Virus record (IMG/VR): IMGVR_UViG_2588253749_000003
Location: 1 to 41,222 of that record
DNA: 41,222 nucleotides
Strand: one strand, 5' to 3'
Origin: a virus
Taxonomy: Duplodnaviria; Heunggongvirae; Uroviricota; Caudoviricetes
Position 1 is the first letter of the stretch; the number at the start of each line of letters is the position of its first letter. The translations under genes and the position numbers were made by a program. Below are positions 1,419-9,518 of this stretch, in pieces. The notes below the pieces were generated by a model, which was given only the letters and a program-made list of their open reading frames with translations, was not told the origin of the DNA and searched no databases.

Positions 1419-3890
1419 TTAAAAATCAGCCTGATTCGGAATCAGTTTTTGCCAGATAGCTGAAACGTATTTTGCCTGGTAACGGGCGTCATCAAGTGCA
1501 TTATGGCGCTCACCTTCGAATGGAATAGCCGTTCTGGCATCGAAGTCTATGGCTTTCCCCAGCTCAACGATTGTGCGTACATCGCGATCGTTGTAGTAAC
1601 GCCACGGGCAGGGGATCCCCTGCCGTTCGTATGAACGGCGCAAAATCGTGTTGTCGAAGTTGGCTCCATTTCCCCAAACCTGAACAAAAAATTCACCGGA
1701 GTTTTCGTCGATAAATTCCCGCAATTGTAACAGTGCATCATCTAACGGGATTTCATCGGTCATAATGGCAGATTGCGCTTCGCGTGATTGCTTAAGCCAC
1801 CATTTAATGGTGTCCCGATCAATGACTCCGCCAGCAGTTTCCAGATCGATAGTCTTACTAAATTCCGGTCCCATATCTCCGGTTTGCGGATCGAAAAATA
1901 TTGCACCTATTGAGATAATCGGGGCATCAGGATTTTTTCCCATGGTTTCAAGGTCGATCATTAGATGGTCACACGTCCTGCTGGTGGATGTGATAACGCG
2001 ATGACCGTTCACCGTAATTAAGGGATCTGCCGTCTCGCCAGTTTCACTATCGCTGGCGTGATCCTGAGCGCTGCCAGCATTCTCCTTGTGTGGGTGTTCA
2101 GCGCCTTCCATTTTCTCCGAATCGTCTTCCTGAACTTCAACCTGGTTCTTGTCATCGAATGTTTCCTGGTATGTTGCGTCGCCCATCACCGCACCACAAT
2201 CAGGGCAGTTGCCACCACCGCTCTGACCGCAGGCGGTGCAGATTTTTTCCGGTTCCTGTTGCACTACTGGTTCAGGTTGTTTCGTTTCTGGCTCGTTTTG
2301 TTGCGTATTTGGGCTGTTTTGTTCCGCTTTCTGGTCGTTCTGTTCCGTTTCTTGCTGGTTCTGGTTCACAGTATCGCGGGTCTGGATCCCCTTAACCCAT
2401 TTCGGATCATTCGGGTCGCTAATCCCTTCAATAAATTCACCACGTGATGCAGCAAGCAACTTATCGGCGTCAGGCTGGCTGATATTGGCTGCCTGCATAA
2501 TTTTGTTTACTTCGTCAGCGGTAACTTTTACCGGTTCTGGCTGTGCGGTCGTGTCAGATGCACCAGTATTTTGTTGTGAACCTGAGTATGTACTGTTTTT
2601 GCGGGCGAAATATTCTTCTTTCGTGATTTCAGTAGCCCCGGCAGCCAGCGCCTTATCCAGACCAGAAAGTTTGTTTGCGCGACCGTATTTTTCGCCATCC
2701 TTGTCGGTGAAGAGGAAGTAGAACGGCCCCTCACGCTCTACAGATGGTTCGACTTCCACTTTGCATTCGGTTTTTTCGTTGTCCGGAATTGCCGTTTCCA
2801 CTGCATCAGTTTCTGGTACTGGCGACGAGAGAGTATCAGTTGCGCTCTGATTTGTTCCTTCATCTTCAAACACGCCCTTTGTAGTCAGGTATTCAGTAAT
2901 GTATTTGTTCAGTGCCACAGGATCTTTGTGAATGTCGATCGGACGTTCACGGACAAGGCCAAAAATAGTCTGGCGGTCGTAGCGAAGGGCATCAGGCTGT
3001 TTGCGCATCGATGCCGAGATACGCTTCCAGTCTTCGCGGTCGTTGTCGATAACTTCATTTTTTGCCCAGCGATGGATGCTGCCGTCAATGTTTCCGGCAT
3101 CCACATCACCAGGCCAGAGAGCGTAGGCCAGTTCGTCATCCAGTGTTTTCCATGTCTGCTTGTATTCGCGATGAGTGGCAGCAATGACCGGGTTGATTTT
3201 TCCTGTTGAATTTTCAGTGTTCTGTTGATTGGCTCTGGCGCGGGCGAGATCAACAACAGACGTGTATTTTCCGGTTTCCTTGCGTTCACCTTCGCGACGT
3301 TTTTTCCAGATGCGCATCTCTGCCTGAATTTCGGGCCATTTAGCACCAGGAATACATTTATGCTTAACCCACCCAATGGCGTGCAACTTAAGCTCCGGAT
3401 ACATGGCGTTAACTTCTGGCATTTTCATCAACGCTTCAACGATATGTCCGTCGAATGTTGCCATGTCTTCCTGCAACAGTTCCTGTGCACTAATCACCAT
3501 ATCAACGGTGATGTTTTCACATGTGTCGAACTTAACCATGACAGCGTTCTGTACTTCAGGGGCCAGCTTGTCAAAAGTGACGTTCATCGGATTTGATTCA
3601 GTCTCAACCGGGACAAAGGAAGCTGACTCCTCATCCCAGCGGTTTTCCTGCATATATTCAGCATCCCAGGAATCGAGGGCAGGGCGGGGTATACCGGGTT
3701 TATCCTCGCAAACAAGAAATTTATAAGCGCAGTCCTGAGCAGCCGGATAATGTTCCAGGAATTGCCAGTGAAATTTTGCGCGGGCGCGGCGTTCGTCGCC
3801 AGCTTCAATGGCAGTGGCTACAGCGACTGCACCTTCTTCCTTTATTGCCTGTTCGTCCGGAATAGCGGCGCAAATAAAGACTTTACTCAT
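1419..3890 (-). CDS. Large early protein with C-terminal DnaQ-like DEDDh 3'-5' exonuclease domain, Cys4 zinc-ribbon and acidic/Gln-rich low-complexity linker
   Basis: 823-aa ORF; C-terminal motifs DLETMG (Exo I), WGNGANFDNTIL (Exo II), HNALDDARY (Exo III); CTACGQSGGGNCPDCG zinc ribbon; QNQQETEQNDQKAEQN... linker. Confidence 0.7.
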   Translation of the reverse strand: MSKVFICAAIPDEQAIKEEGAVAVATAIEAGDERRARAKFHWQFLEHYPAAQDCAYKFLVCEDKPGIPRPALDSWDAEYMQENRWDEESASFVPVETESNPMNVTFDKLAPEVQNAVMVKFDTCENITVDMVISAQELLQEDMATFDGHIVEALMKMPEVNAMYPELKLHAIGWVKHKCIPGAKWPEIQAEMRIWKKRREGERKETGKYTSVVDLARARANQQNTENSTGKINPVIAATHREYKQTWKTLDDELAYALWPGDVDAGNIDGSIHRWAKNEVIDNDREDWKRISASMRKQPDALRYDRQTIFGLVRERPIDIHKDPVALNKYITEYLTTKGVFEDEGTNQSATDTLSSPVPETDAVETAIPDNEKTECKVEVEPSVEREGPFYFLFTDKDGEKYGRANKLSGLDKALAAGATEITKEEYFARKNSTYSGSQQNTGASDTTAQPEPVKVTADEVNKIMQAANISQPDADKLLAASRGEFIEGISDPNDPKWVKGIQTRDTVNQNQQETEQNDQKAEQNSPNTQQNEPETKQPEPVVQQEPEKICTACGQSGGGNCPDCGAVMGDATYQETFDDKNQVEVQEDDSEKMEGAEHPHKENAGSAQDHASDSETGETADPLITVNGHRVITSTSRTCDHLMIDLETMGKNPDAPIISIGAIFFDPQTGDMGPEFSKTIDLETAGGVIDRDTIKWWLKQSREAQSAIMTDEIPLDDALLQLREFIDENSGEFFVQVWGNGANFDNTILRRSYERQGIPCPWRYYNDRDVRTIVELGKAIDFDARTAIPFEGERHNALDDARYQAKYVSAIWQKLIPNQADF

Positions 3891-6579: not shown

Positions 6580-7056
6580 TTAAGTTCCTGTCTTGGTGAT
6601 GTTCTGGCTTTTCCGTTTTGATTCTTGATTTTTCAGATAGTTAGCTACCTTCATTTCCATTGCGGCAATGTAGGCGCGAACGTCATGATCAACCCAACTA
6701 GGCTCCGTAGCATTTCCAGATAAGATGAAAGCCACAATTGCTCTTTTTTCATCAGAGGCGGCTTGATAAAGGCTGTTTATGTCTAAAAGTTCACTTTTTG
6801 TATCTGAAGTGGATGGGGTTGGTATGGGGTATTCGTTAAGCCCCCAATGCTCTGGACCAACCACATCAGAAAAGAAACGCCATAGTTCTGGAAGTTTGTC
6901 TTTACTTATCGAACCTTTCTTAATCCAGTCATGGATTGATGGTGGTTGGACTTTGAAATGACGTGCGATTTCCGCCTTTGATTTGACGGCTCCTGATGCA
7001 ATTTTTTTGTTAATGGCCTGCTCTATCGCTCGGCCTAAGTCTTTACCACTAAGCAT
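6580..7056 (-). CDS. CI-like phage repressor (XRE-family HTH)
   Basis: 158-aa ORF divergent from cro-like gene; N-terminal HTH-like region; operator-rich divergent intergenic region. Confidence 0.72.
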   Translation of the reverse strand: MLSGKDLGRAIEQAINKKIASGAVKSKAEIARHFKVQPPSIHDWIKKGSISKDKLPELWRFFSDVVGPEHWGLNEYPIPTPSTSDTKSELLDINSLYQAASDEKRAIVAFILSGNATEPSWVDHDVRAYIAAMEMKVANYLKNQESKRKSQNITKTGT

Positions 7057-7110
7057 TGCTTAATAGTCTCCTATGCGCATCGCGTTAGGCAATCCCTACT
7101 CTCGATGTAT

Positions 7111-7153
7111 TAGGCATAGCCTATTGACAATTTCATTAGGCTAAGCCTAATAT
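7111..7153 (+). promoter_or_regulatory. OR/PR-like region: two operator palindromes overlapping a rightward sigma70 promoter
   Basis: TAGGCATAGCCTA (7111-7123) and TAGGCTAAGCCTA (7137-7149); TTGACA at 7124-7129 and TAATAT at 7148-7153 (18-nt spacer) upstream of cro-like ATG 7181. Confidence 0.6.
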
Positions 7154-7180
7154 TGTTGCGTGTTTTTTGGAGTTCATTCG

Positions 7181-7504: not shown

Positions 7505-7913
7505 GCACATCCGCATGGCGATGAATGCCTGGGCATACCCTGATGGTGAGAAAGTTCCTGCAGCTGAAATAGCCCGGACTTATTTCGAACTGGGGATGAC
7601 GTTCCCTGAACTGTATGACGACAGCCATCCGGAAGCCCTGGCTCGCAATACCCAGAAAATTTTCCGCTGGGTAGAGAAAGACACCCCTGATGCAGTTGAA
7701 AAAATTCAGGCGTTGTTACCAGCGATCGAAAAGGCAATGCCACCTTTGCTGGTGGCCAGAATGCGCAGCCACAGTTCAGCTTATTTTCGGGAGCTGGTGG
7801 AGATGCGGGAGCGACTGGTGAGAGACGCTGATGATTTTGTCGCAGTGGCAATCGCCGGTTTCAATCAGATGAACCGTGGTGGCCCGGCAGGAAATGCTGT
7901 GGCAGTACATTGA
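7488..7913 (+). CDS. YdaT-like (CII-like) regulatory protein
   Basis: 141-aa ORF overlapping cro-like stop; N-terminus MKIKHEHI... and size recall Rac YdaT-family proteins (from memory). Confidence 0.55.
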   Translation: MKIKHEHIRMAMNAWAYPDGEKVPAAEIARTYFELGMTFPELYDDSHPEALARNTQKIFRWVEKDTPDAVEKIQALLPAIEKAMPPLLVARMRSHSSAYFRELVEMRERLVRDADDFVAVAIAGFNQMNRGGPAGNAVAVH

Positions 7914-7984
7914 CTGACAATAGCCATATCGAATCGCTTCCGGCAACTCGTGAGTAAAAAGATTCGGTATCAGAAGAGGTGAGT

Positions 7985-9055
7985 ATGGCTAACGCCTGGC
8001 TCAGATTATGGCATGACATGCCAAATGACCCTAAGTGGCGAACAATTGCCAGGGTGTCAGGGCAGCCAATTGCAACAGTGATGGCAGTGTATATCCACCT
8101 CCTGGTGAGCGCGTCACGAAATGTCACGCGAGGTCACATTGATGTCACGACAGAAGATTTGGCAAGTGCGCTCGACGTGACAGAAGAGGTAATTGATTCA
8201 ATTTTGCAGACGATGCAGGGGCGGGTACTTGATGGTGATTTAATCACTGGATGGGAAAAACGCCAGGTGCTGAAAGAGGACAACGGCAATATTTCGCAAA
8301 CCGCAAAATCTCCGGCAGAGCGCAAGAGGGCGCAGCGAGAGAGGGAAAGAAAGCGGGAACAAAATGGCGATTGTCACGGCGAGTCACGAAATGTCACGCA
8401 CATGTCACGACGAGTCACGACAGATAAAGATACAGATAAAGATACAGATCAAGAAGATCAAAACACTATGGTCCATGGCGTAAAAAACGCCACGAACCAG
8501 GCAGGGGATGTTCAGACCGTCACTCCTGGCCAGCCCGCAGGCACGACACCGGAAGCCGATTCAGCGTATGCGCTGAAAGCCGATTCGGGCGCTGTGCAGC
8601 AGGTGATGACCGCAAGGCAGGAGCAATCACACCAACTTCAGCAGCCTGAAGCCGATTCCGCCATTCAGCGGGAAGCCGATCGGGTAGTCCCGGAAAACAC
8701 CGGGCAGCCTGTGGGACGAGTGGATTATCCTGATGTGTTCGAACAGGTCTGGCGGGAATACCCGTTGCGTGCTGGGGCAAACCCGAAGAAATCCGCTTTC
8801 AGTGCCTGGAAGGCCAGATTACGCGAGGGGGTGTCACCAGAGGCCATGCTGGATGGCGTGAGGCGTTACGCAAGATACCTTGCGGCTACCGGGAAAACGG
8901 GAACGGAATTTGTTCAGCGAGCGACGACGTTTTTTGGACCGGACCGGAATTTTGAAAACCCCTGGCTGCTCCCGGTAAGCGGCACGAACAACCAGCGTTG
9001 TGTGAATCATATTTCTGAACCGGATACCGAAATTCCACCGGGCTTCAGGGGGTAA
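7985..9055 (+). CDS. Replisome organizer / replication initiator (O-like) with internal ori iterons
   Basis: N-terminus AWLRLWHDMPNDPKWRTIA fits phage replisome-organizer N-terminal pattern; two internal clusters of GTCACG direct repeats; GAGGTG SD before ATG 7985. Confidence 0.65.
   Translation: MANAWLRLWHDMPNDPKWRTIARVSGQPIATVMAVYIHLLVSASRNVTRGHIDVTTEDLASALDVTEEVIDSILQTMQGRVLDGDLITGWEKRQVLKEDNGNISQTAKSPAERKRAQRERERKREQNGDCHGESRNVTHMSRRVTTDKDTDKDTDQEDQNTMVHGVKNATNQAGDVQTVTPGQPAGTTPEADSAYALKADSGAVQQVMTARQEQSHQLQQPEADSAIQREADRVVPENTGQPVGRVDYPDVFEQVWREYPLRAGANPKKSAFSAWKARLREGVSPEAMLDGVRRYARYLAATGKTGTEFVQRATTFFGPDRNFENPWLLPVSGTNNQRCVNHISEPDTEIPPGFRG
8112..8152. repeat. Iteron cluster 1 (4 copies GTCACG/GTCACA at about 10-11 bp spacing)
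   Basis: gcGTCACGaaatGTCACGcgagGTCACattgatGTCACGacag read directly. Confidence 0.7.
8372..8447. repeat. Iteron cluster 2 (5 copies GTCACG) followed by tandem cagataaagata repeats
   Basis: ttGTCACGgcgaGTCACGaaatGTCACGcacatGTCACGacgaGTCACGacag then gataaagatacagataaagatacagat. Confidence 0.7.
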
Positions 9056-9095
9056 GTGTTGATTTCTGGTCATGAGGTAATTTTCAGGAGGACTT

Positions 9096-9518
9096 GTGGC
9101 AAAAGTTTTTACACAAGAAGAGCGAGAAAAAATTAAAGGGCAGGTTGTTGAACTCGTACGCCAGAGTGGGCGTGAGACGTTACGGCAACTGGAAGTCAAG
9201 ACAGGTGCGACAAGATATCTGATGAGCGTTCTCGCAAGAGAGCTGGTTGCCAGCGGCGATGTATACAACTCTGGTTACGGGTTATTCCCGTCTGAACAGG
9301 CGCGTAAGGACTGGCAAAATGCCCGTAAAAAGCTCTCAAGGGCAAAGCTGAAGAAACCATCTGCGGTTGATCCGGACCTTATCTGGTCATTACCTGACGG
9401 AGAAATACGTCGCTACGACAGGCGTCAGAACATAATCTGTCGCGAGTGCCGGAAGAGTGAGGTTATGCAGCGTGTGCTGGCATTTTATCAGGGTAATTTT
9501 CAGGAGGTGATGGCGTGA
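9096..9518 (+). CDS. Hypothetical protein
   Basis: 140-aa ORF, GTG start with AGGAGG SD upstream; no recognisable motif. Confidence 0.4.
   Translation: MAKVFTQEEREKIKGQVVELVRQSGRETLRQLEVKTGATRYLMSVLARELVASGDVYNSGYGLFPSEQARKDWQNARKKLSRAKLKKPSAVDPDLIWSLPDGEIRRYDRRQNIICRECRKSEVMQRVLAFYQGNFQEVMA

Follow-up and report, generated by a model that had tools for sequence, protein, structure and literature searches.

The 41,222-nucleotide (nt) DNA of IMG/VR record IMGVR_UViG_2588253749_000003, a virus of the Caudoviricetes (the entire stretch is referred to here as the window, and coordinates are those of the window), contains a replication initiator gene whose coding sequence carries two arrays of a 6-bp direct repeat, GTCACG, the second of them followed directly by an A-rich run. 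Judging from sequence, we consider it probable that both arrays and the adjoining A-rich run make up the vegetative replication origin of this lambdoid-mosaic prophage, placed inside the gene for its own initiator. The evidence set out below—a regular phasing of the repeats, constraint on synonymous positions, conservation of the layout among distant relatives, and co-variation of the repeat motif with one domain of the protein—supports the prediction that the repeats behave as initiator-specific binding sites (iterons).

Two phased arrays inside an initiator gene

The elements on which this reading depends are the following:

7985-9055, + strand: replication initiator gene, 356 amino acids (aa), from the open reading frame (ORF) list; holds the arrays, the A-rich run and a hairpin
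7985-8368, + strand: N-terminal winged-helix domain (aa 1-128), putatively iteron-binding
8113-8118, + strand: array I unit 1, GTCACG
8123-8128, + strand: array I unit 2, GTCACG
8133-8138, + strand: array I unit 3, GTCACA (variant copy)
8144-8149, + strand: array I unit 4, GTCACG
8420-8466, unstranded: A-rich, low-GC stretch, candidate DNA-unwinding element (DUE); includes (ACAGATAAAGAT)x2.9 and encodes the acidic/lysine linker TDKDTDKDTDQEDQ

Array I comprises four + strand units (8113-8149) at spacings of 10, 10 and 11 bp, as found by reading of the sequence, repeat finders and pattern search, and it encodes aa 43-55, where helix 3 ends and a flexible loop follows. Array II consists of five exact copies of GTCACG on the + strand at 8373-8419 (starts 8373, 8383, 8393, 8404 and 8414; spacings 10/10/11/10), located in codons 130-145, which specify part of the disordered interdomain linker. 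An initial annotation of this DNA had already reported clusters of four and five GTCACG copies spaced by roughly one helical turn, and repeat finders and pattern search agree with its positions to within 1 nt. Pattern search also recovered a single inverted GTCACG at 8176-8181 on the - strand, 33 nt past the start of array I unit 4, that the annotation had overlooked; the total is thus nine direct 6-bp cores and one inverted, with the arrays 260 bp apart. The sequence GTGAC stands at the equivalent place in about 18 of 22 GTCAC-class loci, and is found there in Pseudomonas, Aeromonas and Escherichia coli variant loci as well. Immediately 3' of array II, Tandem Repeats Finder identified (ACAGATAAAGAT)x2.9 at 8420-8454, encoding TDKDTDKDTDQ—the same tandem repeat that had been described earlier as coding for DKDTDKDTD—and the lowest-GC 40-nt segment of the gene (8420-8459, 30% GC) begins at this point.

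These repeats are not a chance feature of the gene's composition. Throughout the 41-kb window, chains of at least four 5-mer units with 9-12 bp spacing occur only as arrays I and II, and when the codons of the gene were shuffled 5000 times, chains of four units came up twice and chains of five not at all. The units fall in reading frames 2, 0, 1 and 0 in array I and 1, 2, 0, 2 and 0 in array II; because all three frames are used, the repeat is written in DNA and not in protein. Selection acts on this DNA beyond the protein code, as we observed in a set of 22 GTCACG-class sequences (21 loci of different species or phages, plus the window): third-codon entropy within the four array-I hexamers was 0.17 bit, versus 1.39 bit at the other 89 third positions (Mann-Whitney p=2e-5), and the four-fold degenerate sites of V47 (GTC), T48 (ACG) and V54 (GTC) were invariant. 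Elsewhere in the window, GTCACG occurs as scattered single copies only. A search for a second origin comparable to oriR of phage SPP1 revealed no further phased array across the 41 kb, and no DnaA box with one mismatch or fewer was present in 7900-9100.

The whole length of the 356-aa protein matches PHROG 3729 (phrog_3729), “replication initiation protein” (E 2e-256), and P0121, a 99%-identical cluster with 5786 member sequences, carries the NCBI name “phage replisome organizer”; a Pfam search of the protein matched no family. The protein begins with an N-domain of the DnaD-like winged-helix type, which a disordered linker joins to a C-domain ending in a DnaT-like tail. An AlphaFold model of aa 1-97 is confident (mean predicted local distance difference test score, pLDDT, 81.6), with helices at 4-14, 16-25, 29-45, 56-63 and 67-77 plus a hairpin, and it describes a winged helix closest to the N-terminal domain of DnaD (DnaD-NTD), a fold assignment of moderate strength. 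In the full-length model, pLDDT is below 50 in the loop at aa 47-52 and about 30 across the disordered linker (aa 128-248); the overall value is 49.8 owing to this long linker, and the helical C-domain is too uncertain for a fold search. Array I thus encodes the last part of helix 3 and a low-confidence loop of the N-domain, and array II and the DK run fall within the disordered linker.

Conservation of the layout and co-variation with the N-domain

Relatives were gathered by tblastn with the N-terminal 162 aa, giving phage matches from 100% down to about 32% identity, and a scan of one genome per species yielded 80 loci whose N-domains are 31-99% identical; 77 of them had sufficient length for scoring. 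(A further 80 loci from IMG/VR all had N-domains 100% identical to that of the window and added no information.) The detector took the first 650 nt of each gene and sought the 5-mer forming the best chains of at least three units at 9-12 or 20-22 bp. A phased chain (at least three units) was present in 69 of the 77 loci and a score of at least 4 was reached in 60, compared with 0 of 385 codon-shuffled copies, 1 of 72 upstream flanks and 1 of 75 downstream flanks. Two arrays were found in 41 loci, and in every one of these (41/41) the motif was the same in both. Spacing across the family is strongly concentrated on the helical repeat (10 bp in 234 intervals, 11 bp in 42, 9 bp in 8 and 12 bp in 2), and the median distance from array I start to array II start is 260 bp.

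The A-rich run is conserved with the arrays. Over the 40 nt past the distal array, mean GC content is 37% versus 57% for the gene, 75% of coding-strand positions are purines, and 60 of 67 loci show a GC drop of 10 points or more (Wilcoxon p=1e-12). Every GTCAC-class locus has a (GATAAA)n run, in frame as (DK)n, at this position. Many distant clades are missing array I; the distal array and A-rich run are nearly universal. Two GATC (Dam) sites, at 8447-8450 and 8456-8459, lie inside the A-rich stretch of the window, and enterobacterial members (L092, L093, L097, L102, L111 and L171) likewise have GATC where the (GATAAA)n run ends on its 3' side; this could be a coincidence of codons (GAT-C..) or a feature that makes the unwinding region methylation-sensitive.

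Across the 77 species, the repeat motif co-varies with the N-domain. Motif classes—GTCACG, CGAACGC/AACGC, GCAACG, GTAACG(C), GACGC and CTACG—track N-domain clades, with ACG at the 3' end of the core common to most of them. More distant relatives have other motifs at these two places, for example a Manatee Spring virus with CGAACGC (L005), Ralstonia phage Firinga with GCAACG (L007) and a further locus with AACGC (L006). In all, the layout is common to hundreds of related phages, the motif differing from group to group. The remainder of the protein does not share this association. Pseudomonas phage phi1 and Aeromonas phage pAEv1818 have N-domains that are 70% identical to that of the window, although C-domains and partner genes differ; both carry GTCAC(G) at both array places with the 10/10/11 spacing of the window. 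Likewise, an E. coli variant (L003) joins the same N-domain to a PF17948 DnaT-type C-domain (E 9.6e-18) followed by a P gene, and has six units in array I, with a 7-residue loop insertion, and five in array II. Altogether, this one N-domain keeps its GTCACG arrays in combination with at least four types of C-domain and partner gene, and some relatives with the window-type N-domain have P, DnaC or DnaB genes.

Copy number in array I varies (L003 at 2214-2271, L091, L127 and L130), the additional units appearing as in-frame loop insertions: variants of E. coli and E. albertii have two additional units, amounting to 21 bp or 7 residues (TCHGVSL), and a Pseudomonas locus has far longer array-I loop insertions. 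The array-I loop accepts any peptide that the iterons encode. We rejected the notion that recognition is self-referential, the hexamer being read by the very loop peptide that array I encodes, since distant clades have GTCACG with unrelated loop peptides and no array I.

Module boundaries could be read from partial matches in E. coli, some of which end at about 8442 and contain only the N-domain, arrays and DK run (H59), and others of which begin at about 8460 and contain only the C-domain (H55-58). Because the matches break at these points, the N-domain, both arrays and the A-rich run evidently travel together and recombine with differing C-domains. Such joint travel is the behavior expected of an origin-specificity module and matches the classical division of lambda O into N- and C-terminal parts. 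The replication module works in viable phages, since database entries for phages (vB_EcoS-640R1, Tritos and Evi) have it at 96.5-99.3% identity; at least 80% of a 1.2-kb query was present in 1646 of 5426 complete E. coli genomes. The reciprocal combination is seen in an O157 prophage (L170; NZ_CP022050.2), where a window-type C-domain follows an unrelated-looking N-domain (MRDYAKVSPRFWL…). The gene of this prophage has arrays of its own at 11-bp spacing—AAGGGGCTT x2 with a third, partial unit at 1165-1198, and AAGGGGCTT x3 at 1421-1452—and the second just precedes a (GAACAG)n/QEQEQE linker. The two-array plan may extend past the N-domain family of the window.

A candidate origin and competing explanations

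With one unit per helical turn in a single orientation, proteins bound to an array would lie on one face of the DNA and could bind cooperatively. We propose a scheme, whose steps of initiator binding, oligomerization, melting and helicase recruitment we infer, in which the N-terminal winged-helix domain would recognize the 6-bp core GTCACG, and same-orientation units at 10-11 bp would align monomers on one helix face to give a cooperative oligomer or filament on array II, the putative origin core. Strain would then open the A-rich, 30%-GC stretch at 8420-8466, and the C-domain with its DnaT-like tail would recruit the host helicase-loading machinery. Array I and the inverted unit, 260 bp upstream, would probably take part as well, whether in an auxiliary role, in control, or through looping. 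An iteron-type origin is expected to have at least three same-orientation, phased, initiator-specific copies; the window has four and five, and at least six motif classes track initiator clades.

The last step draws on the C-terminus of the protein:

8987-9052, + strand: DnaT-like C-terminal tail NNQRCVNHISEPDTEIPPGFRG, codons 335-356

A phmmer comparison matched the final 22 residues (…VNHISEPDTEIPPGFRG), from end to end, to the tail of host DnaT (…VNTVSEPDSQIPPGFRG; PDB 6aep, 2ru8 and 9zbt), with weak E-values (0.017-0.5) over a match that spans only about 22 residues. Residues 156-179 of the NCBIfam DnaT model NF002770 also match (E 0.0014, far under the cut-off), a PDB profile search with the full-length alignment recovered the DnaT tail alone, and the motif SEPDxxIPPGFRG is present at the very end of the protein. 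The PF17948 DnaT DNA-binding domain gave no match at E<=1 in the window C-domain. No P-, DnaC- or DnaB-type gene follows the initiator in the window, according to the ORF list, Pfam and PHROG, and with this tail, phage initiators that have no P/DnaC partner gene may mimic a host restart-primosome protein. In E. coli, the C-terminal domain of DnaT forms filaments on single-stranded DNA and docks on PriA, and the acidic linker of DnaT binds PriB (PMC13377028).

Several observations weigh against the arrays and A-rich run being an origin. A single array was found in 28 of the 77 loci (the distal one in 26 of these 28) and no detectable array in 8. The A-rich run doubles as the code for an acidic/lysine linker, so that its composition could be selected at the protein level, or could serve both DNA melting and the linker. 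In addition, the searchable literature yielded no experimental account of binding, melting or replication for this family. As for the array-less homologues, this minority includes L113, L119, L125 (Ventosimonas/Entomomonas), L132, L149, L161 and L168, some of which retain (GATAAA)n or a purine-rich run together with AACGC-like units (one or two); decay of the prophage, or a form of origin beyond the reach of the detector, may account for them.

Among the other explanations, the most durable is that the arrays are initiator sites for control only—autorepression, a transcriptional roadblock within the initiator's own gene, or copy-number “handcuffing” of the kind seen with the additional iteron sets in P1 and F plasmids—with the start site elsewhere. 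We regard this as unlikely for the arrays together, though it may well hold for array I alone, which lies in the coding region of a structured domain with no A-rich neighbor; moreover, a pair of same-motif arrays set apart (median 260 bp) recalls control iterons. On the contrary, a low-GC, purine-rich stretch directly after the distal array (60/67 loci), preferential retention of the distal array where only one is left (26/28) and the lack of any other phased array in the 41-kb window all argue against a start site elsewhere, and the lambda iterons (PMC5043065) and the SPP1 gene 38 repeats (PMC6316719), both inside initiator genes, are described as origin parts.

Quite improbable, in our view, is binding by some other factor, such as a host protein, a phage repressor, YdaS/YdaT or the DUF977 protein. 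This would be favored by the moderate strength of the winged-helix assignment, self-binding being a prediction from sequence, but motif class tracks N-domain clade from Enterobacterales to Burkholderiales, Xanthomonadales and sphingomonads, across differing neighbors and C-domains. An operator function for GTCACG was rejected on the absence of the motif from the racR/ydaS intergenic region (7056-7160), and neither its scattered single copies elsewhere nor the absence of DnaA boxes (<=1 mismatch, 7900-9100) points to a host factor or repressor.

That the repeats have no function and arose from a repeated peptide motif (SRNVT...VTT) or from slippage in the low-complexity linker, as a by-product, is very improbable. 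The arrays do encode partly similar peptides, ASRNVTRGHIDVTTED and ESRNVTHMSRRVTTD, and the neighboring DK repeat, whose copy number varies among relatives, is plainly prone to slippage; yet units in the other frames encode GH, CH and MS and retain GTCAC, the same hexamer recurs in distant clades with unrelated loop peptides, and the 10/10/11 phasing is kept across the family. The use of three frames and the frozen synonymous sites, including the invariant four-fold degenerate positions within the hexamers, rule out a repeat at the protein level, and we consider the by-product explanation already largely refuted. Finally, action in the messenger RNA, through a GUCACG motif for an RNA-binding protein or translational control, would suit the presence of every array unit on the coding strand but has next to no likelihood, given a 10-11 nt period that fits the B-DNA helical repeat and makes no evident sense in RNA, the conservation of an inverted unit on the opposite strand, and no Rfam family matching at the arrays.

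Returning to the origin that we favor, a more elaborate version can be imagined, which is possible but rather doubtful: an undescribed, family-wide design of two phased 6-bp arrays, the proximal one dictating loop residues of the DNA-binding domain and expanding in frame-preserving steps (21 bp, two units, 7 residues), in which both arrays would be bound and looped or wrapped some 260 bp apart to control distal firing and (GATAAA)n unwinding, the DnaT-mimic tail would connect the complex to the restart/helicase-loading machinery of the host where a P partner otherwise does so, and motif classes would correspond to specificity or incompatibility groups.

Relation to known origins and setting in the prophage

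An origin inside an initiator gene is a classical concept, familiar from lambda, P22 and SPP1, and a specialist would judge the finding tidy, not surprising: the origin-in-initiator logic of lambda and SPP1 recurs here in another protein family, whose repeats follow a grammar of their own. No description of GTCACG-type arrays was found in the literature searched, a search whose reach did not extend to older key reviews and the primary oriJ papers. The gene is usually annotated as “hypothetical protein” or “phage replisome organizer,” with the origin unannotated, and the N-domain family, which has no Pfam model, numbers more than 2000 representative clusters (about 2250).

The initial annotation had called the gene O-like, which is wrong by descent. 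PF04492 (Phage_rep_O) had no match in the 356-aa protein at E<=0.1, BLASTP against lambda O gave E 0.04 in the low-complexity linker only, an hhalign comparison of the N-domain profile with O returned a probability of 0.05%, and the N-domain model is closest, as noted above, to DnaD-NTD. The parallel that the annotation drew with the lambda O/ori arrangement stands in part: iterons do lie inside the initiator gene next to an A-rich unwinding candidate, but their grammar differs from that of lambda; the intact theta-type origin that the annotation argued for, and the binding of the protein to its own coding sequence, are predictions. In both systems, the known or candidate origin is placed between an N-terminal origin-binding domain and a C-terminal domain (lambda iterons in O codons 117-145, array II in codons 130-145), the initiator belongs to a cro-cII-like operon downstream of the immunity region, and the N-domain and repeats form a type-specific module with an exchangeable C-domain. 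An A+T-rich region lies 3' of the repeats in both; in ori-lambda, which lies inside O, the iterons are followed by a 40-bp A+T-rich region, which opens (PMC5043065). In contrast to the four 18-19-bp sites of lambda, which have internal dyad symmetry and each take an O dimer, the window conserves only a 6-bp core with variable flanks, in direct repeats of 10-11-bp period, and it has two arrays, the first within the coding region of the DNA-binding domain. The window also differs in having no downstream P gene, the protein bearing a DnaT-like tail instead.

SPP1 offers a second comparison. Its gp38 binds direct repeats of oriL inside gene 38, beside an AT-rich DUE (PMC6316719), and both elements, direct repeats as well as an AT-rich candidate DUE inside the organizer's own gene, are present in the window. 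Gene 38 (L173, 8996-9027) contains AACAATGATAACAA x3 at a 9-bp step in codons ~139-150, which are candidate gp38 boxes only, at the same relative place as array II. The window protein shares its NCBI name (replisome organizer) with gp38, and its N-domain model is DnaD-NTD-like; as for the organizers of Gram-positive phages (TIGR01714/PF09681), the similarity to TIGR01714 amounts to 15.5 bits, far under the cut-off of 49.8, and hhalign against gp38 gave no N-domain match. Furthermore, SPP1 has a second origin, oriR, elsewhere, as well as loader and helicase genes 39 and 40, whereas the window has no phased array beyond I and II and no loader or helicase genes next door.

The Rac prophage of E. 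coli K-12 (L171; NC_000913.3) shares the operon order racR-ydaS-ydaT-initiator with the window, and its initiator YdaU ends in the IPPGFRG tail found in the window protein and in many relatives. Rac has been reported to have an active origin, oriJ (PMC3945230). The YdaU linker (2977-3140) contains (G/A)TGTTCAAAC-type repeats followed by AATAAAGATACAGATAAAGATC (AATAAAGATACAGATAAAGATCTAAAAACAGATCCCCCCC), and by analogy these linker repeats are a candidate position for oriJ. Rac differs in that the YdaU N-domain is DUF1376 (PF07120), with another repeat motif and spacing, and in that a DnaC-like gene, ydaV, follows ydaU.

Direct, initiator-specific repeats beside an A+T-rich DUE are also the hallmark of iteron plasmids (RepA/pi/TrfA) and of phage P4 (ori/crr), where additional arrays at a distance serve in control or are needed in cis. 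Iterons of plasmids, typically 17-22 bp in length, lie outside the rep gene, usually with DnaA boxes, and in these respects the window differs, its core being 6 bp, its arrays inside the gene and the 7900-9100 interval free of DnaA boxes at the threshold given above.

If the arrays are indeed origins, a simple rule—one hexamer repeated in steps of 10-11 bp, near +130 and again near +390 nt, then an A-rich run—would predict origins and specificity classes in many proteobacterial temperate phages, and would also predict which co-resident prophages cross-activate or compete for initiators. The arrays would further provide a clean natural example of dual coding, in which protein-binding DNA sites limit synonymous positions and shape a protein loop, and the DnaT-like tail offers a clue to the way in which an initiator that has no P, DnaC or DnaB partner gene gains access to the host helicase loader.

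Two further features lie in or near the operon:

7124-7153, + strand: sigma-70-like promoter TTGACA-18-TAATAT, upstream of cro-like ydaS, ydaT and the initiator; from a consensus scan only, with a count not above that of shuffles
8469-8499, right of the A-rich stretch: imperfect hairpin/palindrome with 13-nt arms and a 5-nt loop; folding free energy (dG) -8.7 kcal/mol, z -2.8

Upstream of the initiator are a divergent RacR-like repressor (6580-7056, - strand) and genes for YdaS/Cro-like (PF15943) and YdaT/cII-like (PF06254) proteins; the promoter, if real, would drive transcription across the arrays. A DUF977/Ren-like gene (9096-9518) and then a nucleoside deoxyribosyltransferase-like gene follow downstream. 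The hairpin recalls the palindrome to the right of ori-lambda, and a scan calls it terminator-like on the - strand. We set aside its interpretation as a lambda-like palindrome on account of a z of only -2.8 and an inner stem that is not conserved in the O157 prophage sharing the C-module, and the hairpin is possibly incidental.

The remainder of the window is that of a mosaic prophage. The left arm (integrase, exonuclease VIII, immunity, replication and Q) is about 92% identical to the E. coli phage records vB_EcoS-640R1/813R8, Evi and Tritos, and the 16.3-25 kb region (methylase, terminase and portal) is about 92% identical to the Stx2e phage phiP27. Three consecutive transfer RNA (tRNA) genes, tRNA-Met(CAT), tRNA-Arg(TCG) and tRNA-Arg(TCT), lie at 17871-18120; comparable tRNA clusters are located downstream of Q in Shiga toxin (Stx)/lambdoid phages. 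From 21.7 to 37.1 kb, the window is 94.8% identical to the structural genes of the Shigella phages SfII/SfI/SfIV (terminase, portal, tail sheath and other tail proteins).

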